In this document: positions 2,745 to 22,347 of the stretch, in pieces
How positions within the stretch are numbered: the stretch's first letter is position 1
How the letters are laid out: the number at the start of each line of letters is the position of its first letter
Assembly (NCBI GenBank): GCA_027311385.1
Contig: DAICZA010000002.1
Coordinates: forward strand, 21,327 to 59,531
DNA length: 38,205 bases
Direction: 5' to 3'
From: a bacterium
GTDB lineage: Bacteria > Patescibacteriota > Minisyncoccia > Phycocordibacterales > Phycocordibacteraceae
Position numbers and translations under genes: made by a program
The notes under the pieces: model-generated
What the model was told of the DNA's origin: nothing
Database searches by the model: none
The model's input: only the letters and a program-made list of their open reading frames with translations

Positions 2745-2784
2745 TTCCAGTACCTACTGAGAGAATGCCTTTGTGGTACTGGGA
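2745..2784. repeat. hairpin repeat (ACC(T)AC/GTGGT-NN-GGG family)
   Basis: ttccagtacc...ggtactggga inverted repeat directly abutting fusA repeat copy 2. Confidence 0.6.
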
Positions 2785-2816
2785 TCGCGGATGACATCAT
2801 CGCGAGCCGGAAATAA
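2785..2816 (+). repeat. fusA 3'-end direct repeat, copy 2 (orphan ADDIIASRK*)
   Basis: tcgcggatgacatcatcgcgagccggaaataa; differences are only GAC/GAT, GAT/GAC and TAG/TAA. Confidence 0.9.
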
Positions 2817-2832
2817 TTTAGTTTACAAAAGT

Positions 2833-2866
2833 AAAACGGCGAGCATTGCGGCTCGCCGTTTTGTTT
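2833..2866. terminator. bidirectional intrinsic terminator
   Basis: aaaacggcgagc-attgcg-gctcgccgtttt. Confidence 0.8.
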
Positions 2867-2880
2867 GGGGAAAGGTGGGC

Positions 2881-3231
2881 TTACTCGATGCCGAGGCTCC
2901 TTTTGTAGATGTCTTTGATGAACTCAGTTTGTGATGCGAATGCTGTTTTTGATGACTCGTCCATTCGATCCCAGACCTTCTCCATCTGTTTTGCAAGTTC
3001 GGGATTTTGGCCGCGGGTCTGTTCGCGCTGAGTCTGGATGTTCGCAAGGCTTTGACGGTACGAGCGCAAAGCATTATCCAGGCTTTTTTGCATATCGGTC
3101 CTTGCGCGGGCCATGATGGCCTGACTGTGGACGGCATGCGCCGCGCGGAGCTTACGGATCTGTGCGTCTCCCCAGGCCGTGATCTCTTTCTCGGCCGCGG
3201 CGACTAATTCATCAATAGTGGGATTGGTCAT
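2881..3231 (-). CDS. hypothetical alpha-helical/coiled-coil protein (116 aa)
   Basis: Start re-assigned to MTNPT at 3231, which has a GAGGAG SD; ends near the 2833-2866 terminator. Confidence 0.7.
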   Translation of the reverse strand: MTNPTIDELVAAAEKEITAWGDAQIRKLRAAHAVHSQAIMARARTDMQKSLDNALRSYRQSLANIQTQREQTRGQNPELAKQMEKVWDRMDESSKTAFASQTEFIKDIYKRSLGIE

Positions 3232-3343
3232 GTGGCACTCCTCGTTGGTGGCGGATTGACAGGGTACTCCACGATTACATATCCCATATTTTATAGATAG
3301 AATCAATCGCATCGGAATGTAGTGCATTTGCACACCCTGCATA

Positions 3344-3371
3344 TTGACGGCGCTTTCAGGCGCGGTACCAT
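3344..3371 (+). promoter_or_regulatory. sigma70 promoter
   Basis: TTGACG-16 nt-TACCAT. Confidence 0.6.
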
Positions 3372-3377
3372 AGTTCC

Positions 3378-3505
3378 ATGCAGCGTCGACAGAATCTTCT
3401 CGGCCTCCTCCTTACCACCAACGGTGGAGGGTTCGGCCGTGTCTAGATTCTAAAAGAAACCAGATACAACCGAGAGCCTCCACCAGGAGGCTCTCGGTTC
3501 GTTTT
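3378..3505 (+). promoter_or_regulatory. candidate Leu-responsive transcription attenuator (leader peptide 3378-3446 plus terminator 3468-3505)
   Basis: Leader MQRRQNLLGLLLTTNGGGFGRV*; terminator aaccgagagcctcc-acca-ggaggctctcggtt-cgtttt; alternative pairings are available. Confidence 0.6.
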
Positions 3506-3539
3506 GATCTTTCTGCAACCAAGCAAGTAAGGAGGAGTT

Positions 3540-3845
3540 ATGGCAAGCATGCTGTTTACGGAACCGCCCGATGGTCTGTCACTCGAGGAAGTTCACCAAG
3601 CAATCGCCGTCGCAACTGCGCGGTTGAACGGCGAACGGGCGAAGATGGACGTTGTCCTCTTTGCGCAGGTGTACGTCGGCCCGATTGTCGTTACCCCGGG
3701 ACGGGAGGTAACGTCCTTCATTGTGTCGTACTCGGACAAGGACGCTGACGCGCCGGTATCGGTAGACACGGCGCTCAAACGACTTATTGATTCCCGGAGG
3801 CGGGACCGGTGGTGGTACCCGCGCCGCGATTGCTATTGCGCATAA
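3540..3845 (+). CDS. hypothetical protein (101 aa)
   Basis: Strong AAGGAGGAG SD; followed by a terminator. Confidence 0.7.
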   Translation: MASMLFTEPPDGLSLEEVHQAIAVATARLNGERAKMDVVLFAQVYVGPIVVTPGREVTSFIVSYSDKDADAPVSVDTALKRLIDSRRRDRWWYPRRDCYCA

Positions 3846-3870
3846 CCCGTTACCAGCGGGGGAGTGCATT

Positions 3871-3917
3871 CGGCCGCCGTTCGCCCACAAGGCGAATCGG
3901 CGGCCGGTTTCTTGTTT
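3871..3917 (+). terminator. intrinsic terminator
   Basis: cggccgccgttcgcc...ggcgaatcggcggccg followed by gtttcttgttt. Confidence 0.7.
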
Positions 3918-3969
3918 GTCTTCTTATCTTGCGTTTCTGTCCTAGATTGGTGGTAGAATTGGAAGACGT

Positions 3970-4206
3970 ATGGATATCGAGAAACAAAAGAAGAATGCTC
4001 GGCAGGCAACTATTGTATGCATAGTATTCTTGGTTGTATCTGTGTATTTTGGTGTAAAGGTCTTGTATCCCGACCTCGGAAATGAACCCGCTCATTTGTT
4101 TGATCCTCTTTATAACCTGGTTGCTTTTATCTTGGCGGCCCCACTCACACTTTATTATGCGATCCTAGCAGTATTTAGATTTTCCAAGTTACAGGGACTG
4201 AAATAG
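3970..4206 (+). CDS. small two-TM membrane protein, AT-rich
   Basis: 78 aa with two hydrophobic helices; TGg-TAGAAT -10 box 10 nt upstream. Confidence 0.7.
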   Translation: MDIEKQKKNARQATIVCIVFLVVSVYFGVKVLYPDLGNEPAHLFDPLYNLVAFILAAPLTLYYAILAVFRFSKLQGLK

Positions 4207-4239
4207 CAGAGGGGAGGTTACCCCCCTCCACGTGGCGGT

Positions 4240-4268
4240 TTGCATTTGTAAAGAGTTTTGCGTATAGT
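4240..4268 (+). promoter_or_regulatory. sigma70 promoter for tuf-rpsJ
   Basis: TTGCAT-17 nt-TATAGT. Confidence 0.7.
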
Positions 4269-4389
4269 GCTCTATAACGCATCTTGGCGTCGCTCTTTGG
4301 CTTGTCTGCTTTTGTGAGTCGGCAAGCTTTGGAGTTTGTTCCGACTCGCGTCGGAGTTATTCGTGATTAACAGAATAAATTAACCGATT

Positions 4390-5595
<1,206 letters not shown>

Positions 5596-5603
5596 CTACT
5601 TGC

Positions 5604-6044
5604 ATGGCAACAGCGGCAAAACCGAAAGCAAAACCGGCGGCGAAGAAAGCCGCGGCAAAGGTCGCGGCGCCCGCGAAGCGCGCATCCGCGCCGCGGGCGA
5701 AAGCCCCGGCCAAGAAGGCCGCCACGGCCGCTCCGGCGGAGCACAAGCTCCGCATCCGCGTCCGCGCCTATGAGCACAAGATTCTGGACCTCTCGGTGAA
5801 GCAGATTATGGACACTGCCGCCCGCTTTGACGCCGTCGTCGTCGGCCCCGTGCCGCTCCCGACCGAAATCAAGCGCTGGACGGTGAACCGCTCTACGTTC
5901 GTCTACAAGGATGCGCGCGAGCAGTTTGAAATGCGCGTCCACAAGCGCCTCATTGATATCATGAACCCGTCCCCGAAGGTGATTGAGGCCCTCACGAACC
6001 TCAATTTACCCTCCGGTGTGACGATAGACGTCAAGATGGTCTAA
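5604..6044 (+). CDS. rpsJ: 30S ribosomal protein S10 with an N-terminal Ala/Lys/Pro-rich extension
   Basis: LRIRVRAYEH, GPVPLPT, REQFEMRVHKRLIDI. Confidence 0.97.
   Translation: MATAAKPKAKPAAKKAAAKVAAPAKRASAPRAKAPAKKAATAAPAEHKLRIRVRAYEHKILDLSVKQIMDTAARFDAVVVGPVPLPTEIKRWTVNRSTFVYKDAREQFEMRVHKRLIDIMNPSPKVIEALTNLNLPSGVTIDVKMV
5984..6044 (+). repeat. rpsJ 3'-end direct repeat, copy 1 (in gene)
   Basis: 61 nt; 53/61 identical to 7657-7717. Confidence 0.95.
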
Positions 6045-6061
6045 CTTCGCTCGGTTGGGCG

Positions 6062-6099
6062 AACAACACAGACGGTCCCGGTGACCGTCTGTGTTGTTT
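6062..6099. terminator. intrinsic terminator after rpsJ
   Basis: aacaacacagacggtc-ccggt-gaccgtctgtgttgtt, a 16-bp perfect stem. Confidence 0.8.
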
Positions 6100-6144
6100 A
6101 GTATGGGTGTGCGACGGTGTGCTACTGTAAAAGCACATCGAGGT

Positions 6145-7659
6145 ATGCAAGATGCGCTCAAAGACTTCGTATTGCAAGAACGAAAGAGAGGCGTTTCCGA
6201 CTCTGATATCACCCATGCTTTGCAAGGCGCGGGATGGCAGGTCGCTGACATCGAGATGGCGCTGGCGACACTCCCGAGTACCCCGGCGTCTACGTGGCGT
6301 ATGGGCGTATTGGCAATAGGGGGAATTGTAGCCATCGCGTTTTTGGCGACACTTATCTTTCTGATGTTTCGCGCGCCGTCCGCAACGTCAACTGGCGGCA
6401 CGGCGCGCACAGTCGTTGCACCGGTCGCTTCGGCGTCTCCGCAAGATGTCTCGCCTCCAGTATCTGTCGCGCAGAGCACGACCACGAGCCAATCGACGCC
6501 GACCGCCAACACATTCGCGCTTACGAGCATCTTTTTAAAAGATGATCCGACGGCGCAGCGCATTGCGACGGGCGCACAGAGTAGTGTCGATATCCGCACG
6601 TTTTCGTTGAAGATTGGAGACGCGACTGCTGTTGGTACCGATTCCTTCGCGTATCGTCTTGTTAGTGCGTTGCGTATGCTTGGATACGTTCCCGGCTCCG
6701 CAGGCGGGCAATATATGTCGGAATCATTACTGTTTCCTTTCGAGCGGGATAACAATCTCCCCGTATCAGATATGGTCAATGCGCAGGTTCTAAAAACGCT
6801 TGACGCCGAGCTTGCAGTCCGAGAGACCAAGGACGCACAGCTCTCCGCACAATTCCCGCTCGCGAAATATGTTACGGCACCACCGGTTGTTAACGAGCCG
6901 ACGGAGGAGCATGCCGCAGCGCTGTTCACGATTGCCTTCAAGGCATTGCCGTCGCAGCTGGTTGTGTGGAATGAGAAGAACTTCCAGACCTATCTCGCCA
7001 AACAGGTGACAGGGTCGTACGCAGGACTCGGCACGCCGAACTACCGCGTTTGCCTCGCGTTCTTGTACCCGGAGTTTGGAGACGCTTGTGCGGTCATACA
7101 TAAAAAAGTGTCCGGCTTCTGGGGAAGCGACTTTTCCATTGCCACCACGCTTCTGCACGAATATGCACATTACCTCGACAAGAACCTGTATGCTCCGGAG
7201 CAGGGGACGTCACTCGGTATCATAGACACGTCAGGGTTCTACGCCATTTCATACGATACGAGCAAGGGAACGGTCACCAGTAACGGGTGGACGGAATATC
7301 CCTTCCTCAGGCCGAACGATGTCGCAAACGAGTTTGTCTCAAGTTATGCTGAAGGGTGGGGCAATGACTCTATTCATACGGCGTATGAAGACTTCGCGGA
7401 ATCATTTGCCTTATACGTGACCGGCGGGCGGATTTTCCGTGAGCTCGCAAAGACCTCTCCGGTACTGAGCGAGAAGTACTTGTGGCTCAAAGAGCACGTC
7501 TTCGGTGGGCAGGAGTACGATACGGGAGACGTCGCGAGCATCGCATATCTCAAGGCCCACGCAACTGCATCCGGAGCGGATGCCGTAGCGACCAAGGCAT
7601 TCAATGTTATTGATTACGCTACACAACTTCCAGATTTTGACTGGAGTTACACGTTCTGA
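6145..7659 (+). CDS. membrane-anchored extracellular zinc metallopeptidase (HEXXH zincin); cargo between the rpsJ repeats
   Basis: Start at ATG 6145 (GAGG upstream). Short cytoplasmic N-domain, one TM helix, S/T/P linker, LLHEYAHYLD, FVSSYA...EDFAESFALY. Confidence 0.8.
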   Translation: MQDALKDFVLQERKRGVSDSDITHALQGAGWQVADIEMALATLPSTPASTWRMGVLAIGGIVAIAFLATLIFLMFRAPSATSTGGTARTVVAPVASASPQDVSPPVSVAQSTTTSQSTPTANTFALTSIFLKDDPTAQRIATGAQSSVDIRTFSLKIGDATAVGTDSFAYRLVSALRMLGYVPGSAGGQYMSESLLFPFERDNNLPVSDMVNAQVLKTLDAELAVRETKDAQLSAQFPLAKYVTAPPVVNEPTEEHAAALFTIAFKALPSQLVVWNEKNFQTYLAKQVTGSYAGLGTPNYRVCLAFLYPEFGDACAVIHKKVSGFWGSDFSIATTLLHEYAHYLDKNLYAPEQGTSLGIIDTSGFYAISYDTSKGTVTSNGWTEYPFLRPNDVANEFVSSYAEGWGNDSIHTAYEDFAESFALYVTGGRIFRELAKTSPVLSEKYLWLKEHVFGGQEYDTGDVASIAYLKAHATASGADAVATKAFNVIDYATQLPDFDWSYTF

Positions 7660-7717
7660 GGCCCTCACGAACCTCAATTTGCCCTCCGGCGTCACCATCG
7701 ACGTCAAAATGGTGTAG
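7657..7717 (+). repeat. rpsJ 3'-end direct repeat, copy 2 (orphan EALTNLNLPSGVTIDVKMV*)
   Basis: First 24 nt identical to copy 1, then 8 third-position synonymous differences; begins in the TGA stop of the cargo gene. Confidence 0.95.
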
Positions 7718-7866
7718 CGCGCTTCCAAAACTACTGCATCTGCGTTGTTGCGACTTCGAGAATTTCTTCCGTCGTACAGCAGAGTACGCCTCCAGAAATC
7801 GCCTCCCCGTGCCTCGCAACTGAAGCTTTCTGAAGACGCTCTGGAATTCAAGGACAGCCAAGATAC

Positions 7867-7900
7867 ACACAACCGCCCGCAAGGGCGGTTGTGTCGTTTT
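7867..7900 (+). terminator. intrinsic terminator
   Basis: acacaaccgccc-gcaa-gggcggttgtgt-cgtttt. Confidence 0.8.
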
Positions 7901-7901
7901 C

Positions 7902-7930
7902 TTGCATCTTTTGGGGCCTTCGTGTAGAGT
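7902..7930 (+). promoter_or_regulatory. sigma70 promoter for rplC-rplD-rplW-rplB
   Basis: TTGCAT-17 nt-TAGAGT. Confidence 0.7.
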
Positions 7931-8017
7931 GCTCCTAACGCTACGAACGGTGCCCGAGACCGGTCCTATGGCAGAACGCGCGATGCGTCTGCTTCGCGCG
8001 TTTTGCTTTAAAAAACA

Positions 8018-8632
8018 ATGAAATTCATCCTCGCCAAGAAAGAAGGAATGACCCGGATTTTCGGGGAAGACGGCCGCGCCCGCGCGGGGACCATTCTGCT
8101 TGCCGACTCGGTGACGGTGACGCAGGTGAAGACAAAGGAGGGCAAGGATGCCTACGCGGCTGTCCAGGTGGGCCAGGGCGTCCGCCGCACGAAGAACATC
8201 AGCAAACCGGTCTTGGGGCACACGAAGGGGAAGGGCTACTCGGCACTCCGCGAGTTTCGCGGCGCCGAAGGCGCCGCGGTGGGCGACACGATTGATGCGT
8301 CGGTCTTCGCCGTGGGTGACGTCGTGCGTGTGTCGGGCCTTACGAAAGGCAAGGGCTTCGCCGGCGTGGTGAAGCGCCACGGCTTCCACGGCGGTCCGCG
8401 CAGCCACGGCCAGAAGCACACCGAGCGCTCCCCGGGCTCCATCGGCGGCTCGGGCGGCCGCGCGGGCGGCCGCGTCGCCAAAGGCATCCGTATGGCCGGC
8501 CGTATGGGGAGCGACCGCGTGACGGTCACGAATCTGAAGGTGCTCGCGGTGGACGCGAAAGCGGGCGAGATAATCGTGAGCGGCGCCGTCCCCGGCCGCC
8601 GCGGTACGCTGCTTGAGATAGTCTCCGCATAA
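8018..8632 (+). CDS. rplC: 50S ribosomal protein L3
   Basis: KGKGFAGVVKRHGF, PGSIG, MAGRMG. Confidence 0.98.
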   Translation: MKFILAKKEGMTRIFGEDGRARAGTILLADSVTVTQVKTKEGKDAYAAVQVGQGVRRTKNISKPVLGHTKGKGYSALREFRGAEGAAVGDTIDASVFAVGDVVRVSGLTKGKGFAGVVKRHGFHGGPRSHGQKHTERSPGSIGGSGGRAGGRVAKGIRMAGRMGSDRVTVTNLKVLAVDAKAGEIIVSGAVPGRRGTLLEIVSA

Positions 8633-8642
8633 TTTGAATACC

Positions 8643-9353
8643 ATGGCTACCGCAAAGAAAACCACGAAGAAAGAATACGTACCGATTGAAGCGGCTATTT
8701 TCTCTATGGAAGGGAAGCAGGTCGGCTCCACTACACTTCCGGAGAACCTCTTCGGTCAGCCGTGGCGCGCTGACCTCGTGCACCAGGTGACCACCGCGAT
8801 GCAGGCCAACCTGCGCCAGAACCGCGCACACACCAAGGACCGCTCGGAGGTCTCGGGCGGCGGCAAGAAGCCGTGGAAGCAGAAGGGCACCGGCCAGGCG
8901 CGCCACAGCTCCACGCGCTCGCCGATTTGGCGCCACGGCGGCATTACCTTCGGCCCGCGCTCAACGCGCGACTACAGCGAGAAAATCAACAAGAAGATGC
9001 GCGTCGGCGCACTGCTCTCGGTGCTCTCCAAGAAGGCGAAGGACGGCGAGATTATTCTCGTGGACAAATTTACCTTTGCGGCGCCGAAGACGGCGCTCGC
9101 AAAGACGGCGCTCGTGGCGCTCGCAAAGGGAGCGGATGCCGGCGTGCTCACAGCAAAGAAAAAGAACGCCGCCCTGCTTGCACTCGCGTCGTACGAGGCG
9201 AACACGATTAAGAGCTTCGGGAATTTCGGCAGCATAGAGACGGAGGAGTTGCGCAACCTGAATCCGGTGGATGTGCTCTCGCACAAATACCTCGTCATTG
9301 AGAACCCGGAGGCGGCATTTAAGGCGCTCACTGTGCGCGCGAAGTCTAAATAA
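8643..9353 (+). CDS. rplD: 50S ribosomal protein L4
   Basis: TKDRSEVSGGGKKPWKQKGTGQAR; start set at ATG 8643. Confidence 0.97.
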   Translation: MATAKKTTKKEYVPIEAAIFSMEGKQVGSTTLPENLFGQPWRADLVHQVTTAMQANLRQNRAHTKDRSEVSGGGKKPWKQKGTGQARHSSTRSPIWRHGGITFGPRSTRDYSEKINKKMRVGALLSVLSKKAKDGEIILVDKFTFAAPKTALAKTALVALAKGADAGVLTAKKKNAALLALASYEANTIKSFGNFGSIETEELRNLNPVDVLSHKYLVIENPEAAFKALTVRAKSK

Positions 9354-9359
9354 ATTACT

Positions 9360-9728: not shown

Positions 9729-9737
9729 TTTCCAGAT

Positions 9738-10586
9738 ATGAAAACGTACAAGCCCACTTCCAAAAGCCGCCGCCAGATGACCACCCTGCCGTACAAGCAG
9801 TTGCTTTCGGGCGACGCGCCGCACAAGCCGCTTCTCAAGAAGAAGGGGAATCAGGGCGGTCGCAACGCGTTCGGACGCATTACGACGCGGCACCAGGGCG
9901 GCGGCCACAAGAAGCGCTTCCGCGACGTGGATTTCAAATACGACAAGAAAGATATCCCGGCGAAGATTGAGACGGTTGAATACGACCCGTTTCGCAGTGC
10001 GTTCATCGGGCTCGCGCTCTACCGGGACGGCGCGCGCCGCTACGTCATCCTGCCGAAAGAAGTGGCGGTCGGCAGCACGTTCGTCGTGTCCGAGAAGGCG
10101 CCGCTCTCGCCGGGGAACCGCCTTCCGCTCGGGAAGATTCCGGTCGGCACGTTCATCTACAACGTTGAAATTACGCCGCTCGCCGGCGCGCGCCTCGTCC
10201 GCTCGGCGGGCAACTACGCCGAAGTGGTTGCGCACGACGCGGGCTACGCACAGGTGAAACTCCCGTCAACGGAAATCCGCAAGATTTCCGACCTTTCGTG
10301 GGCCAGCATCGGCGCCGTCGGCAACGAGGAATACAATCTCGTCGTCATCGGCAAGGCCGGCCGCAGCCGCTGGCTCGGTATCCGCCCGACGGTACGCGGC
10401 ACCGCGATGAACCCGGTAGACCACCCGCACGGCGGCGGCGAAGGCCGTCAGGGCCGCGGGCTCCGCCGCGCAAAGAGCAAGTGGGGCAAGCCCACCGGCA
10501 AGGGACAGAAGACGAGGACCCCCAAAAAATACTCAAACGTGTTTATTGTCAGCAGGCGTAAAGTTGGAAAGAAACGCAAAGGTTAG
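9738..10586 (+). CDS. rplB: 50S ribosomal protein L2
   Basis: GRNAFGRIT, EYDP, VRGTAMNPVDHPHGGGEG. Confidence 0.99.
   Translation: MKTYKPTSKSRRQMTTLPYKQLLSGDAPHKPLLKKKGNQGGRNAFGRITTRHQGGGHKKRFRDVDFKYDKKDIPAKIETVEYDPFRSAFIGLALYRDGARRYVILPKEVAVGSTFVVSEKAPLSPGNRLPLGKIPVGTFIYNVEITPLAGARLVRSAGNYAEVVAHDAGYAQVKLPSTEIRKISDLSWASIGAVGNEEYNLVVIGKAGRSRWLGIRPTVRGTAMNPVDHPHGGGEGRQGRGLRRAKSKWGKPTGKGQKTRTPKKYSNVFIVSRRKVGKKRKG
10527..10586 (+). repeat. rplB 3'-end repeat, copy 1 (in gene, AT-rich codons)
   Basis: Encodes KYSNVFIVSRRKVGKKRKG*. Confidence 0.92.
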
Positions 10587-10594
10587 CCGACCTG

Positions 10595-10635
10595 CCCCGT
10601 AGCCAACCGAGCGAAGCGAGGTTGTGGTACCGGGG
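10595..10635. repeat. hairpin repeat (CCCC.../GTGGT-NN-GGGG family) between the rplB repeats
   Basis: ccccgtagccaacc-gagcgaagcga-ggttgtggtaccgggg. Confidence 0.65.
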
Positions 10636-10637
10636 AG

Positions 10638-10697
10638 AAGTACTCAAACGTCTTCATCGTCTCCCGCCGCAAGGTCGGCAAAAAGAGGAAAGGATAA
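10638..10697 (+). repeat. rplB 3'-end repeat, copy 2 (orphan, host-like codons)
   Basis: Same 19-aa peptide; 14 of 19 codons plus the stop differ synonymously; shared core tactcaaacgt. Confidence 0.92.
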
Positions 10698-10734
10698 TTT
10701 TACAAAGCACCCAGTAGGCGATTCTGCTGAATCG

Positions 10735-10764
10735 AAAAGCTCCGCACATTCGTGCGGGGCTTTT
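10735..10764. terminator. intrinsic terminator
   Basis: aaaagctccgcac-attc-gtgcggggctttt. Confidence 0.75.
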
Positions 10765-10827
10765 GCTATAGTTGACTCTAGACGAAGAACTTTTTTGTCG
10801 AATTTCCACCAACCGGACAAGGAGAAG

Positions 10828-11049
10828 ATGATGAAGAACGCAGATAGCGGAGTACGACCTATTTCAGAGGAAATGAGACGGCGAATCGAAGCAGGTCTTC
10901 GCGATTTGAGCGATCCCAATTCAGTTACACGGAGACGTTATAACGCGGCCGCGGAGAAAGGGGTCAAGTTGCTCAAGCCACTTGAAGATGTCATCGCCAG
11001 GTCGGAATGTCTGACCGAGTCTGATTTAGACATCGTCATAAATGTATGA
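10828..11049 (+). CDS. hypothetical protein (about 73 aa)
   Basis: AAGGAG SD before MMKNAD; TGc-TATAGT upstream; terminator at 11056-11087. Confidence 0.65.
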   Translation: MMKNADSGVRPISEEMRRRIEAGLRDLSDPNSVTRRRYNAAAEKGVKLLKPLEDVIARSECLTESDLDIVINV

Positions 11050-11055
11050 CACAAA

Positions 11056-11087
11056 GGCCGTTCCCTCGGGAACGGCCCGTGGTTTTT
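11056..11087. terminator. terminator between convergent genes
   Basis: ggccgttccc-tc-gggaacggcc followed by a T-tract. Confidence 0.7.
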
Positions 11088-11843
11088 TTATCTGTACTCC
11101 GGCTTCAGGATGTTCGCGAGTTCTGATGTTGGAATACGGAGCGTTTGCGGTCCGGCGGCATAGGGGGCGACCGCGTAGGGAGGGAAGAGAATGACGAGAT
11201 TTTGGTTATCAAAAAAGAAGTTTGCAAAATTCTTATCGTCGGGCGTCGTGCCGGGGTTGATGAAGGCCGCGTCGGCGCCTTGGCCGATGATAGCGGGGAG
11301 TTTTGCGCGCGCGAGCGACGAGAGCGTGCCGAGATAGTCCGCACCCGGCGCAAACAGGTCGGCGAGCGTGAGCGCCGCGCCGCTTGTCGTGTCAAAGGTG
11401 AAGGTCTTGAAGAATGTGTTGCCGTGCGCGCCGAGCGTGTCCTCGTAGACGGTGAAGATGTAGGAGACGGTGTGCGACGACGACGCGGTGAGGTACACGA
11501 TGTTGAGTGTCTCTTTGCGTCCGGCGCCGAGACCAATCTTCGCGGCGTCCTGCGGCGTGAGCGTAGCGAAATTGCCGTCAGACTTGAATTGCGCGATGGT
11601 GTCGGCGACGAAACGCTTCATCTCTGCCACGGCGACGGTGTTTTCGGCGGCGGCGAGCGGCGTGCTGGTCGCATAATTGGCGGCGATATCGTAGTAAGGT
11701 GCGTGTTCTACGTAGTGGTTCCCCGGCAGGGCGACGGTCGCTCCGGGTGCCTTCGCCGGCACCGGGCGCGTGGCGGCGTAGAGGACAATACCGATGAAAA
11801 TGACGAGTATGACGGCTATCCCAATGTAGGTATTTCTCTGCAT
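11088..11843 (-). CDS. membrane-anchored RsiV/PdaC-like (DUF3298-type) protein
   Basis: N-terminal TM; GAHGN, LTLADLF and F.PY.VAPYAAG motifs. Confidence 0.8.
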   Translation of the reverse strand: MQRNTYIGIAVILVIFIGIVLYAATRPVPAKAPGATVALPGNHYVEHAPYYDIAANYATSTPLAAAENTVAVAEMKRFVADTIAQFKSDGNFATLTPQDAAKIGLGAGRKETLNIVYLTASSSHTVSYIFTVYEDTLGAHGNTFFKTFTFDTTSGAALTLADLFAPGADYLGTLSSLARAKLPAIIGQGADAAFINPGTTPDDKNFANFFFDNQNLVILFPPYAVAPYAAGPQTLRIPTSELANILKPEYR

Positions 11844-11968
11844 AGTATGTGCAAGTGTACCGCAATTTCGCGGTCTTGTGGGGATTTTCTGTAGTTCACG
11901 CTACATACACGATATGTCAAGGTTCTGGAATGACCTAGGATTTATGAGGGTGTTTCGGAACGGTAGAG

Positions 11969-11997
11969 TTGACTCCACCGGCCTCTTCCTGTATCTT
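11969..11997 (+). promoter_or_regulatory. sigma70 promoter for rpsS and downstream genes
   Basis: TTGACT-17 nt-TATCTT. Confidence 0.65.
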
Positions 11998-12032
11998 TCC
12001 TGTATCCCGCTGCGCGGGCTTTTCATTACTTT

Positions 12033-13406: not shown

Positions 13407-13429
13407 CGAAGCGAATATGATTTCCGAGC

Positions 13430-13560
13430 ACCCCGGCACCACTTTTGCGAAACGAAACGAAACAACCATGACTACTTACATTACAATTGCTTATGAAAAT
13501 AAAAACTTGTCCGCAAGACAAGTTTTTGGGGGCGATTGCACGGCAAAAGTGGTGCGGGGT
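13430..13560. repeat. MITE/REP-like inverted-repeat element between rpsC and rplP
   Basis: accccggcaccacttttgc ... gcaaaagtggtgcggggt; internal hairpin aaaaacttgtc-cgcaa-gacaagttttt. Confidence 0.75.
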
Positions 13561-13600
13561 AAGCGTTTGCTAAGTTCGCGGACTCGCTAAGAAAACGCTT

Positions 13601-14023: not shown

Positions 14024-14042
14024 TTGCTTTTTCCCTATTTGT

Positions 14043-14249: not shown

Positions 14250-14254
14250 CTGCT

Positions 14255-14530: not shown

Positions 14531-14534
14531 TTCT

Positions 14535-14912: not shown

Positions 14913-14933
14913 TCGCTGTTTAATCTTTTGTGT

Positions 14934-15197: not shown

Positions 15198-15206
15198 ATT
15201 CAGCAT

Positions 15207-15758: not shown

Positions 15759-15796
15759 TATTCTGACGATACGCTCTTCGGGGCTTTATTTTTTCT

Positions 15797-16066
15797 ATGG
15801 CCAAAAAATCCCAGCACGCACGACTCGTCAAGAAGACGAAACTCGTCAAGAAGTACGCGGTAAAGCGTGCGGCGTTGAAGCTGGCCGGCGATTCCGAAGG
15901 CCTGCAGAAACTCCCGCGGAATTCCTCGCCCGTCCGCCTCAAGAACCGCTGTGCCATCACCGGCCGCTCCCGCGGCTATATGCGCGCATTCGGCCTCTCG
16001 CGCATCCAGTTCCGCGAGCTCGCGCGCGAGGGCAAGATTCCGGGCGTTAAGAAAGCATCATGGTAA
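15797..16066 (+). CDS. rpsN: 30S ribosomal protein S14 (89-aa, Zn-ribbon-less type)
   Basis: [29 protein letters not shown]; only one Cys. Confidence 0.97.
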
Positions 16067-16464
16067 CTGACCGCGTCGGTGATTTCATCATCCGTCTCCA
16101 GAATGCCGCGGCTATCGGCAAGGCGGAGGTGTCTCTGCCGTACTCGGAACACCTCTTCGCCATCGCGCAGAAGCTCAAGGACCTCGGCTATCTTTCGCAC
16201 GCGGAGGTGACGGTGAAGGAGGGCGACGAAGTGAAGAAGACGATCGTCGCGGCGCTCTCCTATAACGAACACGGCGTTGCAAAACTCCGCGGCGTGAAGC
16301 GTATCAGCAAGCCCGGCCGCCGGCTCTACGTGCCGTCTACCGCCGCACACAAGGTGAAGGGCGGTACCGGCGCGCGCATCATTTCAAGCCCCGCCGGCAT
16401 CATCTCGGATGCGGAAGCGCGCAAAACGCACGTGGGCGGCGAGAATCTTTTTGAGATTTGGTAA
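16060..16464 (+). CDS. rpsH: 30S ribosomal protein S8
   Basis: [28 protein letters not shown]. Confidence 0.97.
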
Positions 16465-16474
16465 TGATTGTTGT

Positions 16475-17005
16475 ATGAGCCGCCTTGCCAAAAAGCCGAT
16501 TGCAATAGGAAAGACCGATGTCTCGGTCGCCGGCGGCACGCTGACCGTAAAGGGGACGAAGGGCACACTCACCAAGCGCGTGCACCCGTCGGTGAACATT
16601 TCGGTTGAGGGTGGCGCCGTCGCTATCACGCCGAAGGACCGTTCTCGTCTCGCCAAGGCGCTCATCGGCACGTATGCATCGCATGTGAAGAATATGGTCC
16701 AGGGCGTTGAGACGCCCTATGTGAAGAAGCTCATCCTCGACGGCGTCGGCTACCGGATGGAAGTGAAAGGCAAGGATGTCGTGCTCACGGTCGGCTTCTC
16801 GCACACGGTGCCGCTCGCGATTCCGGAAGACGTCACGGCAAAGGTGGAGAAGAACGTGCTGACGCTTGAGAGCGTGAACAAAGAGTCGGTCGGGCAGTTC
16901 GCGGCAAATGTCCGCCGCGTGAAGCCGCCGGAGCCGTACCTCGGCAAGGGTATCCGCTATGAGGGCGAAGTTATCCGCCGCAAGCAGGGCAAGAAGGCCG
17001 TCTAA
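16475..17005 (+). CDS. rplF: 50S ribosomal protein L6
   Basis: [25 protein letters not shown]; start at ATG 16475. Confidence 0.98.
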
Positions 17006-17009
17006 TACT

Positions 17010-17360
17010 ATGAACCGCAAACCAACCAGCACCAGTGAACTCCGCAAGCGCCGCCATGCGCGCGTGCGGGCGACCGTCATCGGCACCGCGGCGCGGCCGC
17101 GCCTCGCCGTCTACCGGAGCAATCGCTTCGTGTCGGCGCAGCTCATTGACGACGCGGCGGGGAAGACGGTGGCGGCCGCGCATGGACGCGAGTTCAAGGG
17201 TTCGCAGTCGGTGCAGGCGGTGTCGGTCGGCGAAGCCATCGCCAAGCAGGCGAAAGCGAAGGGCATCACGACGGCCGTCTTTGACCGCGGCGGCTACCGC
17301 TACGGCGGGCAGGTGAAGGCGCTCGCGGATGCCGCACGCGCGGGCGGTCTCGCCTTTTAA
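17010..17360 (+). CDS. rplR: 50S ribosomal protein L18
   Basis: [21 protein letters not shown]; start at ATG 17010. Confidence 0.97.
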
Positions 17361-17366
17361 ATAGTT

Positions 17367-17981
17367 ATGACAACCCCGATGGAACCAGAAATCATACAGG
17401 AAGAAGTAGCCGCGCCGGAAGTAGCGGACGTTGAGACGACGGCCGCGCCGGTTGAGGCGGCGCCGGCACCGCGCAACTTCCGCGAACGCGGCGCACTGCG
17501 CGGCCGCGCCCCGCGCGGCGGCGGCCGCGGCCGTCCGCCGCGCGAGCGCGGCGAGTTTGAGCAGGTCACCATTGACGCACGCCGCGTGGCGCGCGTGATG
17601 GCCGGCGGCCGTCGTTTCAATTTCAGCCTCGTGGTCGTCATCGGCGACAAGAAGGGACGCGTCGGCGTCGGGCTCGGCAAAGGCATTGACACCGCGCTCG
17701 CGATTGATAAGGCGACCCGCGACGCAAAGAAGCACCTTTTCACCGTTCCGCGCACGGCCTCGGGCTCCATTCCGCACCAGGTGCTGATGAAGTACGCGTC
17801 GTCCACCGTGGAAATCATCCCGTCCAAGGGCCGCGGGCTCGTCGCCGGCTCGGCGGTGCGCACCGTGCTGGACCTCGCGGGCGTGACCGACGTCGTCACC
17901 AAGATTCACAGCCGTTCCAAGAACAAGCTCACGATGGCGCGCGCCACCGTCGGCGCTCTGAAGAAATTGCGCTCCGCATAA
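17367..17981 (+). CDS. rpsE: 30S ribosomal protein S5
   Basis: RRVARVMAGGRRFNF, GRVGVGLGK; acidic/RG-rich N-terminal extension. Confidence 0.97.
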   Translation: MTTPMEPEIIQEEVAAPEVADVETTAAPVEAAPAPRNFRERGALRGRAPRGGGRGRPPRERGEFEQVTIDARRVARVMAGGRRFNFSLVVVIGDKKGRVGVGLGKGIDTALAIDKATRDAKKHLFTVPRTASGSIPHQVLMKYASSTVEIIPSKGRGLVAGSAVRTVLDLAGVTDVVTKIHSRSKNKLTMARATVGALKKLRSA

Positions 17982-17991
17982 CTATTTCCGT

Positions 17992-18447
17992 ATGCAACTT
18001 CACTCTCTGTCTCCCCGCACCAAAAACAAGAAGAACGCGCCTGTCGGGCGCGGCGGCAAGCGCGGCAAGACCAGCGGCCGCGGCGGGAAAGGGCAGACGG
18101 CGCGCGCCGGGCACCACATCCGCCCGGAAGTCCGCGATCTCATAAAGAAGCTTCCGAAGCGCCGCGGCCACGGCAAGAACCGCGCACGCACCGTGCGTAC
18201 GAACCGCATTTCCGTCTCCGCGGTGAATCTGGATGCGCTGGAACTGAACTACCAAGCCGGCGAGACCGTCTCGCCGGCGACGCTGCTTGCGAGGGGCGTT
18301 GTCCGCCGCGCGAAAGGCCGTGCGCCGATGGTGAAAATCCTCGGTACCGGAGAACTCACGAAGGCGCTCACCGTGACCGGCTGCACCCTTTCCGCTTCGG
18401 CGAAAGCCGCGGTCACGGCCGCCGGCGGAACCATTGCCCATGCTTAA
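17992..18447 (+). CDS. rplO: 50S ribosomal protein L15
   Basis: GRGGKRGKTSGRGGKGQTAR, KILGTGEL. Confidence 0.97.
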   Translation: MQLHSLSPRTKNKKNAPVGRGGKRGKTSGRGGKGQTARAGHHIRPEVRDLIKKLPKRRGHGKNRARTVRTNRISVSAVNLDALELNYQAGETVSPATLLARGVVRRAKGRAPMVKILGTGELTKALTVTGCTLSASAKAAVTAAGGTIAHA

Positions 18448-19714
18448 TTCTTTCAGCCGGAAACTTAGACTTGCGTTCGGCGACCGCGAGATTCGTTTCC
18501 GCATCCTCTTCCTTGCCGGTGCGCTCGCACTCTTCCGCCTCCTCGCGGCGGTTCCCATCCCGGGCGTGGACAAGAACGCGCTTGCGGCGTTTTTTGCGAA
18601 TAACCAATTCTTCGGACTGTTGAATATTTTCTCCGGCGGCGGGCTTTCGCGCCTCTCGGTCGTGATGCTCGGCGTGGGCCCCTACATCACCGCGTCCATC
18701 ATTATGCAGCTCGGCACCATCGTTTTCCCGCAGGTGAAGCAGGCGTACTTTGAAGAGGGCGAAGCGGGCCGCGCGAAATTCATTGAATGGAGCCGCCTCT
18801 TGACCATTCCCATCGCTATCCTGCAGGGCATCGGCTTCCTCTTCCTGCTCGAGAGCCAGGGCGTCATTGCACACCTGGGCACGGTCGCGCTTGTCGCGAA
18901 TATCGCGCTCATCGCCGCGGGTTCTATGCTTCTTATGTGGCTCGGCGAGCTCGTGACCGAGTTCGGCATAGGGAACGGCGTGTCGCTCATCATCCTCGCG
19001 GGCATCCTCGCAGGCGTTCCTTCCAGTATCTCGCAGACCATCTTCGCGTCCACGGTGGCGAACATCCCCGCGTACCTCGCCTTCGCCGTCCTCGCGCTCG
19101 CGATGATTTACGCGGTCGTGGTCGTGTCCGATGCCGAGCGCTCCATCCCGATTGCCTATGCGCGTGCGGTACGCGGCGCCGCGCTGTCGCAAGGTGCGGC
19201 GACGTATCTCCCCATCCGCCTTCTGCAGGCCGGCGTCATCCCCATCATTTTCGCGCTGTCGCTCCTGCTCTTGCCGCAGATGGTGCTGTCTATGCTCGGC
19301 GCGTTCCATCTCTCGTTTGCAACGGCTGCGGCGACCTGGTACACCGCGTTCCTCTCCAATCCGTGGAAGTACGGCTCGGTCTACTTCCTGCTGGTGGTGC
19401 TCTTCACGTATTTCTATACCGCCGTCACGTTTGAACCGCACCGCGTTGCGGAAAATCTCCAGAAGACCGGCGCATTTGTCCCCGGCGTGCGCCCCGGCCG
19501 CGAGACCGAAGAATACATCGGGAAGGTCGTGAATCGTGTGACGCTCCCCGGCGCCTGCTTCCTCGGCCTTCTTGCCGTCGCTCCGAGCATCATCCAGGGG
19601 CTCACCGGCGTCACGACGCTCATCCTCGGCGGTACCGCGCTCCTCATCGCCGTGCAGGTCGCGCTTGACCTCGCGCAGAAAATAGACGCCCAAGTCTCGC
19701 TCCGCGAATACTAA
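18440..19714 (+). CDS. secY: preprotein translocase subunit SecY
   Basis: LGVGPYITASIIMQL, GIGNGVSLII, AGVIPIIFA, PGVRPG, GGTALLI. Confidence 0.98.
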   Translation: MLNSFSRKLRLAFGDREIRFRILFLAGALALFRLLAAVPIPGVDKNALAAFFANNQFFGLLNIFSGGGLSRLSVVMLGVGPYITASIIMQLGTIVFPQVKQAYFEEGEAGRAKFIEWSRLLTIPIAILQGIGFLFLLESQGVIAHLGTVALVANIALIAAGSMLLMWLGELVTEFGIGNGVSLIILAGILAGVPSSISQTIFASTVANIPAYLAFAVLALAMIYAVVVVSDAERSIPIAYARAVRGAALSQGAATYLPIRLLQAGVIPIIFALSLLLLPQMVLSMLGAFHLSFATAAATWYTAFLSNPWKYGSVYFLLVVLFTYFYTAVTFEPHRVAENLQKTGAFVPGVRPGRETEEYIGKVVNRVTLPGACFLGLLAVAPSIIQGLTGVTTLILGGTALLIAVQVALDLAQKIDAQVSLREY

Positions 19715-19732
19715 AGGTGGTAGAGTAGGGCA

Positions 19733-20338
19733 ATGGACACGCACCCCGAGAGTACTCCGAACGCAGCTGACCGCGAAGGGGCGCGCACGGTACTTTTTAT
19801 CGGGAAGCCCGGCTGCGGAAAGGGCGACCAGGCGAAGCTGCTTGCGGAGAAGACCGGCTGGAAGATCATTGCCTCGGGCGAGCAGTTCCGGGCGATGGCT
19901 ACCGAGGACACGCTCGTCGGACGGAAAGTGAAGTCCGTCGGCGACGCGGGCATGCTCCAGCCGCATTGGCTCGCGGAGTATCTCTTTCTCAAGAATCTTT
20001 TTCTTCTCGCGGAAGACGACGGGGCCATTTTTGACGGGTTTGGTCGCGAAGTTCAAGAAACGGAGCTTATTATGGACGCATTTGCCTGGCTCAATCGTCC
20101 GTTCATCGCCCTCCATCTGCGCATTTCCGATGAAGAAATTCGCCACCGCCTCGCGTTGCGCAAGGAGATTGAAGGCCGCGCCGACGACAGTGCCGTTGAC
20201 GAGCGCCTGAAGGAATACCGGGAATACACCGAACCGGTCATTGAGCTGTTCCGCAAGGAAGGGAAGCTCGTTGAAATAGACGGCGAGCGGACGCGGGAAG
20301 CGATTGCAGCAGACATCAACGCGGCGCTCAACCTCTGA
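19733..20338 (+). CDS. adk: adenylate kinase family (short LID)
   Basis: GKPGCGKG P-loop, FDGFGR, GRADD; synteny after secY. Confidence 0.88.
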   Translation: MDTHPESTPNAADREGARTVLFIGKPGCGKGDQAKLLAEKTGWKIIASGEQFRAMATEDTLVGRKVKSVGDAGMLQPHWLAEYLFLKNLFLLAEDDGAIFDGFGREVQETELIMDAFAWLNRPFIALHLRISDEEIRHRLALRKEIEGRADDSAVDERLKEYREYTEPVIELFRKEGKLVEIDGERTREAIAADINAALNL

Positions 20339-21105
20339 TGACGATTACGAACGACACACAGCGTGCGGACCTGATTGAGGGCGGGAAGCGCCTTGCGGCG
20401 GTGCTTGCGGCGCTGCGCGCGAACGTCGCTCCTGGCGTGACGACCGAAGCGTTGGACGACCTTGCCGAACAACTCATCCGCGACGGCGGCGATGAACCGT
20501 GCTTCCTCGGCTACACGCCCGAAGGTTCAAATCGGCCGTACCCGGCGACGCTGTGCGTCTCCATTAACGACGAAGTCGTGCACGGCATCCCGAACGAGTC
20601 ACCAAAGACGCTGAAGGAGGGCGACATCGTCGGACTGGACCTCGGACTCGCGCATAACGGCGTCATCGTGGACGCGGCCATCACCGTGCCGGTGGGGAAC
20701 GTAACCGAGGAGACGAAGGAGCTCCTGCGCGCGACGGAGGCGGCGCTTGCCGCGGGTATCGCCGCCGCCCTTCCGGGGAAGCACGTGGGCGATATTTCGG
20801 CGGCCATCCAGAAGGAGATTGAAGACGCGGGATTTAAGGTGGTGAAGGAGCTCGGCGGTCACGGCGTGGGGGAGCGCGTGCACGAGGAGCCGTTCATCCC
20901 CAACTACGGCCGCGCCGGCGACGGAGAATTGCTCACCGAAGGTATGGTGCTCGCGCTGGAGCCGATTTCCACCGCCGGAAAGGCCACAGTCATCCTTACC
21001 CCCGACGGCTACACCTACCGCACCAAGGACGGCTCGCGCTCCGCGCATTTTGAACACACGATTTTGATAGAAAAGGGCGGCGCGCGTGTTGTAACAGCAC
21101 AGTAA
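20338..21105 (+). CDS. map: type I methionine aminopeptidase
   Basis: SINDEVVHGIP, GHGVG, HEEP, SAHFEHT. Confidence 0.97.
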   Translation: MTITNDTQRADLIEGGKRLAAVLAALRANVAPGVTTEALDDLAEQLIRDGGDEPCFLGYTPEGSNRPYPATLCVSINDEVVHGIPNESPKTLKEGDIVGLDLGLAHNGVIVDAAITVPVGNVTEETKELLRATEAALAAGIAAALPGKHVGDISAAIQKEIEDAGFKVVKELGGHGVGERVHEEPFIPNYGRAGDGELLTEGMVLALEPISTAGKATVILTPDGYTYRTKDGSRSAHFEHTILIEKGGARVVTAQ

Positions 21106-21151
21106 GTTGTGCACCACGCCTCTCCTGCGCGGTCAAAGCAGCCCTATACTA

Positions 21152-21350
21152 ATAGACAGACTTGTTCTTGAAGCGTTCGCGTTACCATTCACACGACGGA
21201 ATGGAACACGGATTGCGAGCGGGGCTTTCGATCCCTTTCCGCCAGAAGGGAGTAAAGAGGTTCTCTTTACGACGGGAGGCATCGTCACGTTCCGCAGGAC
21301 GAGGATGATAAAGAGGGCACCGAGGGAAATACCCGGTGCCCGCCTTGTTT
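21152..21350 (+). ncRNA. candidate structured small RNA 1
   Basis: TATACT at 21145, shared 5' motif, consecutive hairpins, terminal gggcaccg/cggtgccc stem plus T-rich tail. Confidence 0.4.
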
Positions 21351-21429
21351 CCCTCCATATTGCATACATAAGAAAAACGCGTATCATAACTGCATAGCCC
21401 TCGCGGCATTTTATTTTTTATACTCACCT

Positions 21430-22035
21430 ATGGCACACCCGAAAACAGAACGAACGCTCGTCATCGTAAAGCCCGACGGCATTCAGCGCGCGCTTATCGG
21501 CGAAATTATGAAGCGCTATGAGCGACTCGGCCTCAAGCTTGTGGGACTCAAGATGCTCGTCCCGAGCGAGAAGATGATAGAAGAGCATTATTTGCTTGAC
21601 CCGAACTGGAAGAAAAACGTCGGCGAGAAATCAATCGCAAGCTATGTGAAGAAGGGCGAGACGCCGCCGTCAACCGACCCGATTGAAGTCGCAAACGCGG
21701 TGGTCGCGAATTTGAAAAAGTATATGACGAGCGGACCGGTCATTGCGATGGTCTGGGAAGGTGCACACGCGGTGGAGCTGGTGCGCAAGATTACGGGCGG
21801 TACGGAGCCGCGCTCTGCGGGTATCGGCACGATACGCGGCGACTTCGTTCTTGATTCCTACCAAATGGCGGATTCGGATACACGCGCCATCCGCAATCTC
21901 ATTCACGCGTCCGGCTCGGTCCCCGAGGCGGATATGGAAATTCCGCACTGGTTTAAGCCCGAAGAAGTCATCAATTACCACGTACCGCACGAGGCGATAC
22001 TCTACGACGTGGAAATGAAGAATATCCTCGGTTGA
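21430..22035 (+). CDS. ndk: nucleoside-diphosphate kinase
   Basis: ERTLVIVKPDG, SGPV, GTIRGDF, RNLIHAS. Confidence 0.96.
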   Translation: MAHPKTERTLVIVKPDGIQRALIGEIMKRYERLGLKLVGLKMLVPSEKMIEEHYLLDPNWKKNVGEKSIASYVKKGETPPSTDPIEVANAVVANLKKYMTSGPVIAMVWEGAHAVELVRKITGGTEPRSAGIGTIRGDFVLDSYQMADSDTRAIRNLIHASGSVPEADMEIPHWFKPEEVINYHVPHEAILYDVEMKNILG

Positions 22036-22041
22036 GGAACG

Positions 22042-22077
22042 GCAAAAGCCCCGCGATACGCGGGGCTTTTGCGTTTT
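22042..22077. terminator. intrinsic terminator
   Basis: gcaaaagccccgcg-ata-cgcggggcttttgc. Confidence 0.85.
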
Positions 22078-22110
22078 CCACAAGGATATTTTGACGCCGG
22101 GTGTATAGTT

Positions 22111-22347
22111 ATAGACGGAGCTGTTCTTGAAAACGCAACTTGCTCCGGTTTCGGGAAGACGGCATTAAGACGCGCTTGGTGAGCCCCTTACCACTTTTGA
22201 CGCAATGTCTTGCAGTACGAATTGGTAACTATTGTTTCAAAAGTGGTAAGGGGAATCCGAGAGCCGTCGTTGTTCGTAACCCACGTAACACCATAAAGTT
22301 GCCGGAGAGGACAGTTCCGCAAAAAGCCGCTCACAAAGGCGGCTTTT
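22111..22347 (+). ncRNA. candidate structured small RNA 2
   Basis: TATAGT at 22104, shared 5' motif, nested stems gcaactt/aagttgc and gacggc/gccgtc, terminator at 22322-22347. Confidence 0.4.
22184..22253. repeat. MITE/REP-like inverted-repeat element, same family as 13430-13560
   Basis: Perfect 17-bp IR ccccttaccacttttga / tcaaaagtggtaagggg. Confidence 0.8.

Follow-up and report, generated by a model that had tools for sequence, protein, structure and literature searches.

What kind of element are the CCCC...GGGG hairpins that interrupt a ribosomal-protein operon in an ultra-small bacterium, and how could they have come to lie there? The question is raised by a window of 38,205 nt (the whole stretch of DNA that was analysed, C22:21327-59531), in which Pfam matches show the fusA-tuf-S10-spc ribosomal-protein operon of a patescibacterial genome (G000; 637,727 bases, 47 contigs, 58-59% GC, completeness score 100%). 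Contigs are given as C with a number (C22), and G005 and G007 are congeners used for comparison. From the letters alone, an earlier note had described four dispersed stretches with common termini, CCCC-NN-ACCAC and GTGGT-NN-GGGG, as one hairpin family with unrelated interiors, and had proposed that they are single-strand substrates of a trans-acting enzyme, in the manner of repetitive extragenic palindromic (REP) sequences or of integron attC sites. All four stretches exist at about the positions given there, and all four fold better, as single-stranded DNA, than shuffled sequences (z-score calculated for each hairpin: -3.6 at 2745, -2.7 at 10595 with 2/200 shuffles equally good, -4.5 at 13431 and -6.8 at 22184).

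They are not, however, a single family, because a covariance model (R1, built from 37 aligned copies drawn from many genomes) matches 13431-13559 and 22184-22253 and neither of the hairpins at 2745 and 10595 at E<=10. On balance, the four hairpins are better described as two related classes, a long one (family B) and a short one (family C), which behave differently. The common termini are exact at 22184-22253, where the 17-bp arms are perfect, and are present with one bulged extra G at 13431-13559 (whose last base is 13559 rather than 13560), but they are imperfect in the other two: 10595-10635 reads CCCCGTAGCCAACC...GGTTGTGGTACCGGGG and 2745-2784 reads TTCCAGTACCTAC...TTGTGGTACTGGGA, both imperfect hairpins with only the right-arm motif GTGGTACYGGG in common. 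Nor are all interiors unrelated: the homology between 13431-13559 and the reverse complement of C20:5659-5790 extends through the interior, and TTGCAGTA is common to three copies.

The long hairpin class, family B

The consensus of family B is CCCC-NN-ACCAC(TTT)...(AAA)GTGGT-N'N'-GGGG, 65-130 nt in length, in which a terminal stem of 15-16 bp encloses an AT-rich interior that varies among copies. On each strand of the genome the strict paired pattern was found three times, and a control read backwards has none. Model R1 returns exactly six loci (C22:43510, C9:10283, C18:324, C22:34757, C20:5664 and C42:2100), so that the dispersed family expected by the earlier note exists, with the two short hairpins left out of it. 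Among 41 related genomes, of which G000 is one, R1 has matches in 9; a single locus is present in each of 5 of 24 congeners. A scan of 185,579 species genomes (one genome per species, one size class) returned 58 loci with family B termini, mostly in Patescibacteria, with some in Chthoniobacterales, Deltaproteobacteria, Omnitrophota, Spirochaetota and other metagenome-assembled genomes. In the 600-kb genome G317 there are 14 copies or more, which all belong to one NN subtype. Among viral contigs, the family B pattern had 0 matches.

The terminal inverted repeats CCCC-NN-ACCAC / GTGGT-NN-GGGG are present in 68 distinct copies, their bases being required by the search pattern; this pattern itself fixes most stem positions of the copy set, and loops longer than 66 nt were sampled in six genomes only. 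At the stem positions that the pattern leaves free, pairing reaches 94%, 99%, 90% and 68%, compared with 44%, 83%, 46% and 39% after the arms had been shuffled between copies. The first two values are those of the NN bases, which are indeed matched by the opposite arm. A formal covariation count agrees with the proposed structural constraint (95.5% of cells paired versus 86.2% in shuffles, 68 double-change cells versus 24.4, 0/500 shuffles as high), although kinship among sequences can beat shuffles in such a count even without structure.

Family B copies are also flanked by target duplications. At the exact element boundary a 4-nt repeat is found in 18 of the 68 copies and a 5-nt repeat in 4 of them, against 0-1 in seven shifted controls. 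The duplicated sequences all start with T (TAAA, TCAA, TATA, TTGA, TTTA, TGAA, TAAG, TTCA). At C9:10283 the TATA duplication lies within a -10-like box, and at C42:2100 a TATAA duplication lies in the dnaA-rpmH spacer.

Insertion is polymorphic among relatives. The spacer between rpsC and rplP measures 194 nt in the window and 2-14 nt in 15/15 congeners, from whose spacers family B is absent. A second copy of the inserted module, on the reverse strand of C20, aligns from the upstream stop codon TAG through family B and a second hairpin to the downstream ATG. The copy at 22184 stands in place of an 11-nt apical RNA loop present in G007 and G005 (2/2 relatives examined). It is carried by a non-coding RNA of about 230 nt, located 3' of the ndk terminator and ending in a terminator of its own, whose closing helix pairs GGAGCTGTTC on the 5' side with GGACAGTTCC on the 3' side; Rfam searches around 22184 and in the G007 spacer gave chance-level matches only, the best named one being 6S (14.6 bits, E 0.99). 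A third structural context is provided by C18:324-428, an 85-nt insert at the apex of 16S rRNA helix 6 according to alignment with the small-subunit rRNA model, in which the family B arms align as the helix stem. The 16S rRNA gene bearing this insert (C18:1-497) is truncated by the contig end.

Family B is thus probably a gene-less miniature mobile hairpin element. It would enter AT-rich T...A sites, generating a target duplication of 4-5 bp, or land in the apex of an existing RNA hairpin, and would then ride as a self-contained stem-loop in whichever transcript it had entered, its enzyme being encoded elsewhere. The hairpins themselves are gene-less, so that an enzyme could act on them only in trans, and to this extent the earlier proposal stands; its REP and attC identities do not, as discussed below. 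Some observations speak against such an element. No target duplication is seen in 46/68 copies, both window copies among them. An autonomous copy with an open reading frame (ORF) was not found in the 70-500-nt range in five B-bearing genomes, which yielded only copies of about 100 nt. No enzyme could be tied to the family, small GIY-YIG genes being present in 17/21 relatives irrespective of family B. As for other transposase domains, DDE_Tnp_1 has no match in G000 or G317, and rve has one match in G000 and none in G317.

Short hairpins between two copies of a gene end

A family C hairpin measures about 41 nt; its right arm is GTGGTACYGGGG, its left arm pairs imperfectly and its apex is GCGAAGC. 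A search for CCCCGTAGCC-N-GAGCGAAGCGAG-N-GTGGTAC returned four copies in the genome, none in the 300 others from the order and 20 loci in metagenomes; at C12:7094-7134 there is a fifth copy, whose loop deviates from the pattern. The window members are 10595-10635, the degenerate hairpin 2745-2784 and a 14-mer at 6045-6058, which is the exact reverse complement of 10603-10616, as first noticed in the earlier note, and which occurs only three times in the genome. Stem triplets covary among the copies (AAC/GTT, AGC/GCT, ATC/GAT, GTC/GAC, GGC/GCC). The right arm is nearly equal to that of the family B copy C42:2100, and the left arm is altered identically in all copies. Hairpins with varied stems and the apex GAGCGAAGCGAG or GCGAAGC were also observed at C20:5616-5658, C43:~27116, C45:~2669 and C4:~2896; the first of these has a start-codon CAT/ATG in its stem and adjoins a family B copy.

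The setting of family C is constant. The gene body is followed by a re-coded new end, a spacer often ending in gcctg, the CCCC-hairpin-GGGG and finally an orphan copy of the gene end. This layout was found in 5/5 genome copies, at the tail of rplB, the tail of a 502-codon gene (C42), the head of a GTPase-like gene (C33), the head of dnaE and the head of a tsaD-like gene, the last four genes having been named by eye from their first or last residues. The hairpin at 2745 adjoins the fusA orphan in the same manner. Accordingly, two window hairpins do sit directly before orphan tails (the fusA tail duplicate at 2784-2813 and the rplB tail duplicate at 10636-10697), and the connection of all three duplication sites (fusA, rpsJ and rplB) with hairpin pieces holds for the short class. 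In 17 distinct family C copies the compared flanks were identical at 6/6 residues in six cases and at 5/6 in two, with 1 and 3 of 60 in the controls; at family B flanks, 0/66 had 6/6 identical residues. The association with duplicated gene ends suggested by the earlier note therefore belongs to the short class and not to the long one.

Comparison with congeners identifies which of the two ends is native. At the C42 site the orphan and the DNA downstream of it correspond to the native gene end of 15/15 congeners, none of which has a hairpin, and, judging from such alignments, the orphan is the ancestral gene end. The new ends are AT-richer, and the drop in third-position GC is confined to them. 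They differ from the orphans only synonymously, switches of serine and arginine codon family included, and therefore diverged as working genes in another lineage. At C42, re-coding extends over 13 codons and the orphan over only 6, in keeping with a homologous crossover on the gene side. Two other origins for the duplicated tails, a diversity-generating retroelement and hypermutation in place, were considered and rejected on the same grounds: the differences are not confined to adenines, and they include the serine and arginine codon-family switches (assessed by eye).

This seam architecture is a general habit of short CCCC...GGGG hairpins, because it recurs at two sites where the hairpin is of the type of family A, a start-codon element presented below. 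At the fusA end of G005 (L036/L037, C7), an AT-rich re-coded tail is followed by a short 39-nt hairpin of this type, CCCCGTTAGAACG...TTTCTAATGGGG, and then by the orphan VAADIIASRK; the event is independent of that in the window and affects the same gene end. In the window, a 40-nt hairpin of family A type at 25699-25738, CCCCGTTAGAACACG...TTTTCTAACCGGGG, has TTTTCAT on both sides (25682-25745). These repeats look like a duplicated start (ATGAAAA) of a minus-strand gene, in the same layout as at family C seams.

How could such seams have arisen? The favoured, though tentative, explanation regards family C as the end of a patch of imported single-stranded DNA. The hairpin would mark the outer end of a small imported DNA patch. 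The incoming single strand would end at the hairpin foot, its gene side would pair with the recipient gene by homology, and its hairpin side would join illegitimately upstream of the recipient's own gene end, stranding that end as the orphan. A single-stranded intermediate, cleavage at the hairpin foot and one-sided homologous recombination would all be involved. The microhomology read by eye at the junctions amounts to 1-2 nt.

Several observations fit this patch model poorly. In every copy the join coincides with the last G of the hairpin, a regularity greater than illegitimate recombination would lead one to expect; an element end set by an enzyme, or a site-specific event, would fit it. 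Over hairpin and spacer, G000 and a relative from a metagenome agree at 52/52 positions, against an identity of only 84% in the gene body, and G007, an equally close congener, is without that insert. The orphans of the two lineages differ only synonymously (7/7 at C42; 11 nt in 13 codons at C33). Were the insert ancestral, the orphans would be under selection, a feature that the patch model leaves unexplained. Among the 20 metagenome loci no donor genome with the hairpin and without the orphan was found, and contigs of four DNA sequencing runs show neither a joint nor a form without the hairpin block, rare variants being invisible in contigs. The exact junction, the 52/52 identity and the synonymous orphans leave room for a site-specific cassette or for a two-end module maintained by selection; stranded orphan ends may be kept by selection as alternative gene ends.

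For family C alone, the cassette alternative can be made explicit: each copy would be a site-specific integrative cassette carrying a replacement gene end in its attachment site, with the hairpin as recombination site. Genomic islands and prophages integrating into gene ends are known analogues, and attC or the folded attP of CTX-type phages are known as folded recombination sites. The fixed polarity and the junction at the last G are as expected of such cassettes, as are the short identical cores within the duplicated ends (23 nt at rpsJ, 11 nt at rplB), the repeated use of the same gene ends (rpsJ here and in L126, fusA here and in G005) and the identity of hairpin and spacer across lineages 84% alike. 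However, a re-coded stretch longer than the orphan, as at C42, is not given by conservative recombination at one core. The only Phage_integrase match in G000, a tyrosine recombinase of 323 codons (C22:849-1379), is far from any copy. Cores of the types RYYYAAC and GTTRRRY, cassette arrays and a nearby intI characterise attC sites; neither core is present in the arms of B or C, and there is no cassette or integron-like array, which speaks against the attC identity put forward by the earlier note. The cassette explanation as a whole is improbable.

The window sites themselves are listed in Table 1. The S10 operon additionally houses cargo ORFs of 522 codons (rpsJ-rplC) and of 141 and 249 codons (rplB-rpsS), none belonging to a Pfam family; searches of all cargo ORFs (522, 141, 249, 76 and 96 codons) gave nothing above noise. 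In a low-depth X4 contig, 6046 is connected to 7865 through 38 other letters, without the 522-codon ORF; this contig probably represents a relative lacking it. A tRNA scan of the window found none.

Table 1. Hairpins, duplicated gene ends and inserted segments in the window
Feature	Positions	Strand	Evidence or remark
Inserted segment, fusA stop to hairpin	2418-2744	+	76-codon ORF 2498-2728 not found in G007, G005
Short imperfect hairpin, C-like, right arm TTGTGGTACTGGGA; abuts displaced fusA tail	2745-2784	+	z -3.6; no R1 match
Orphan fusA tail, last 10 codons and stop	2784-2816	+	tblastn 9/10 identical; DNA comparison
Functional rpsJ tail	5985-6044	+	First 23 nt identical to orphan, then 8 synonymous differences
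14-nt family C fragment (left arm and loop), directly 3' of rpsJ stop	6045-6058	-	3 genome occurrences
Cargo ORF, 522 codons, no Pfam family	6091-7659	+	Not found in this region of G007, G005
Orphan rpsJ tail	7658-7717	+	19/19 residues identical; duplicated part 7658-7714
Re-coded, AT-richer functional rplB tail, last 20 codons and TAG	10524-10586	+	Third-position GC down to 0.47
8-nt spacer ccgacctg and 41-nt family C hairpin, GCGAAGC apex	10587-10635	+	Sequence, genome pattern, fold
Orphan rplB tail	10636-10697	+	Nearly identical to native G007 tail
Further insert between rplB and rpsS, two ORFs without known family	10698-12032	+	Not found in G007, G005
Inserted module, rpsC stop codon to rplP start codon	13407-13600	+	194 nt; congener spacer comparison
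Family B copy, GC subtype, internal terminator-like hairpin 13501-13527	13431-13559	+	Sequence, fold, model R1
Conserved non-coding RNA gene, between ndk and RNase J-like gene	22117-22347	+	Alignable in G007, G005
Family B copy, TT subtype, inside non-coding RNA	22184-22253	+	Fold, model R1, relatives' comparison

Candidate enzymes and a third hairpin family

The most obvious candidates for a trans-acting enzyme are the REP-associated tyrosine transposases (RAYTs), IS200-like Y1 HUH transposases that act on a folded single strand and would here move REP- or REPIN-like repeats. REP/RAYT systems are recognised by a conserved GTAG beside an imperfect palindrome and by the lack of target duplications. 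The genome has five Y1_Tnp matches (C9:3488-4141, C14:8105-8815, C8:80-766, C11:61695-62423 and C6:~16900-17251), four of them above the Pfam cut-off. Each locus has its own, different, perfect palindrome, placed on both sides at four loci and on one side at C14, and these palindromes have further copies dispersed in the genome. The RAYT element on C11 is flanked by identical 36-bp direct repeats, evidence that long flank duplications accompany hairpin-bounded HUH elements in this genome; at a distance of about 1 kb from it there is a perfect palindrome, GCCCAGTACCACATC-C-GATGTGGTACTGGGC. Family C would also suit such an enzyme in its conserved, asymmetric stem and in containing GTAG, which lies inside its left arm. 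A short duplication is absent from family C and present in family B.

This explanation is nevertheless unlikely. None of the five Y1 genes is flanked by a CCCC..ACCAC (family B) or a family C hairpin, and the association with RAYT or IS200-like genes foreseen in the earlier note is not seen at these loci. Family B copies have target duplications of 4-5 bp, which neither REP/RAYT nor attC recombination is known to leave. G317, with its at least 14 family B copies, has no Y1_Tnp match, nor any to DDE_Tnp_1 or rve; it has one Xer-like recombinase and one small GIY-YIG gene (no completeness value being given for this genome). Finally, the strict family C pattern is confined to 1/301 genomes of the order, yet Y1 genes occur in 4/5 other genomes tested.

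The weakest alternative, and a very unlikely one, is that the hairpins function primarily at the RNA level, as terminators, RNase III processing sites or stems bound by protein, and persist because they regulate the ribosomal-protein operon: their stems covary, the window copies all lie within transcribed regions, the 13431 copy holds a terminator-like hairpin in a module ending exactly at the rplP start codon, and the homologous modules on C22 and C20 are oriented alike relative to flanking genes, but the hairpin is absent at the orthologous site in 15/15 congeners, other copies occupy contexts as unrelated as 16S rRNA, a non-coding RNA, a -10 box and the dnaA-rpmH spacer, target duplications are present, the distribution among relatives is patchy (9/41), and at the gathering score no Rfam family matches the window or the operons of two relatives.

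A third hairpin family in the same genome does have a candidate enzyme of its own. Family A (TCCCGTTAGAR...YTCTAACGGGA) is represented by 32 paired copies of 61-277 nt (for example C1:3492-3608 and C3:7334-7450), flanked by 4-nt repeats that hold the TG of a start codon. In 25 of the 32 copies an ORF of at least 72 codons starts with the last base of the element plus TG, and all are oriented with the gene. Upstream flanks show TATAMT about 7 nt ahead of the ATG, so that the genes look leaderless. The family A copy in the window (33986-34046) lies between two convergent stop codons and has CTAA repeats. An autonomous copy of 277 nt (C11:47249-47525) encodes a 94-residue GIY-YIG protein, whose ATG is taken from the upstream target duplicate and whose TGA is made by the downstream one. 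Translation through family A, from the upstream ATG to a conserved TAA, was also considered and was dropped in view of an early stop in one copy.

Family B resembles family A in several respects: both reside in the same genome and have CCC(C) ends, a covarying stem, a variable interior and a 4-nt target duplication. They differ in that family A has an autonomous copy, with its 94-residue GIY-YIG protein, and none was found for family B; in that family A targets the start codons of leaderless genes and family B T...A sites and hairpin apices; and in their arm sequences.

GIY-YIG nucleases of the Ssn type cut single-stranded DNA beside hairpin repeats (NTS/SRM) and thereby alter the integration of transforming DNA (Chenal et al. 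2025, PMC11893778), which provides a precedent for the patch model. As with the present elements, Ssn hairpin repeats are dispersed around genes, and the Ssn enzyme, encoded elsewhere, cuts by the hairpin and so shapes which incoming DNA recombines (PMC11893778); for B and C such cleavage is a proposal. Ssn repeats are not known to have target duplications or duplicated gene ends. The SRM motif, in the form published there (PMC11893778), is not enriched in the present genome, with 7 matches compared with 8, 6, 7, 6 and 4 in five shuffled genomes, and the 12-nt prefixes of the seven matches are not those of B or C hairpins. About 100 nt on each side of the GIY-YIG genes at C44:4034-4303 of G000 and on contig C26 of G317 contained no B, C or A hairpin motif, a far smaller span than the 5 kb per side covered by the flank test in the Ssn paper (PMC11893778).

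A single superfamily of hairpin elements acting as single-stranded DNA, made up of B, C and A and served by tiny Ssn-like GIY-YIG nucleases that stand alone, has to be considered improbable. Under such a scheme the same cut at the hairpin foot would both transpose the elements, with a 4-bp duplication, and set the ends of DNA taken up by the cell. If this were true, these nucleases would drive a routine replacement of gene starts and ends in ultra-small bacteria.

Implications and known systems

Ultra-small bacteria of the candidate phyla radiation (CPR) are usually described as poor in mobile DNA. The 637-kb genome considered here holds about 32 start-codon elements, six family B and five family C hairpins and five hairpin-bounded Y1 genes. 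The presence of inserts within 16S rRNA, a small RNA gene and a ribosomal-protein operon indicates that essential genes tolerate hairpin inserts which fold on themselves. The seam hairpins would provide a readable record of very short imported patches that rewrote the first or last codons of fusA, rpsJ, rplB, dnaE and the tsaD-like gene, and, if an enzyme sets the patch ends, they would point to a candidate site-specific single-strand nuclease or recombinase. For annotation, inserts of these kinds lengthen spacers, split operons and create false gene ends. Literature on leaderless genes in Patescibacteria, on miniature inverted-repeat transposable elements (MITEs) of CPR bacteria and on hairpin-linked recombination during transformation, judged from titles and entries, included no description of these elements.

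The closest known counterparts of family B are the Correia/NEMIS elements of Neisseria and the ERIC sequences of enterobacteria, both of them long-hairpin bacterial MITEs transcribed together with genes of their hosts. Family B shares with them its small size, the absence of genes, terminal inverted repeats, a short target duplication, several copies per genome, a patchy distribution and its occurrence in transcripts. Unlike them, it has no autonomous partner with the same ends (among copies of 70-500 nt in five genomes), its NN and inner stem positions covary, so that pairing itself is kept, and some copies lie in the apices of structural RNA genes.

Family C recalls two other situations, homology-facilitated illegitimate recombination in natural transformation and the replacement of the end of fungal mitochondrial atp6 together with a mobile endonuclease ORF. 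In each case a foreign, synonymously different end is placed on a native gene body and the native end is left downstream, untranslated. The differences are that the outer border of family C is always the same small hairpin and that its patches, of about 110 nt at rplB, are of very small size and mostly gene-less.

The copy in 16S rRNA, lastly, can be compared with the intervening sequences (IVS) known from rRNA helices, which are removed by RNase III. Like an IVS, C18:324-428 is a hairpin insert of about 100 nt at the apex of an rRNA helix, here helix 6 of 16S rRNA. Unlike IVS, family B is also found in promoters, in operon spacers and in a small RNA gene.

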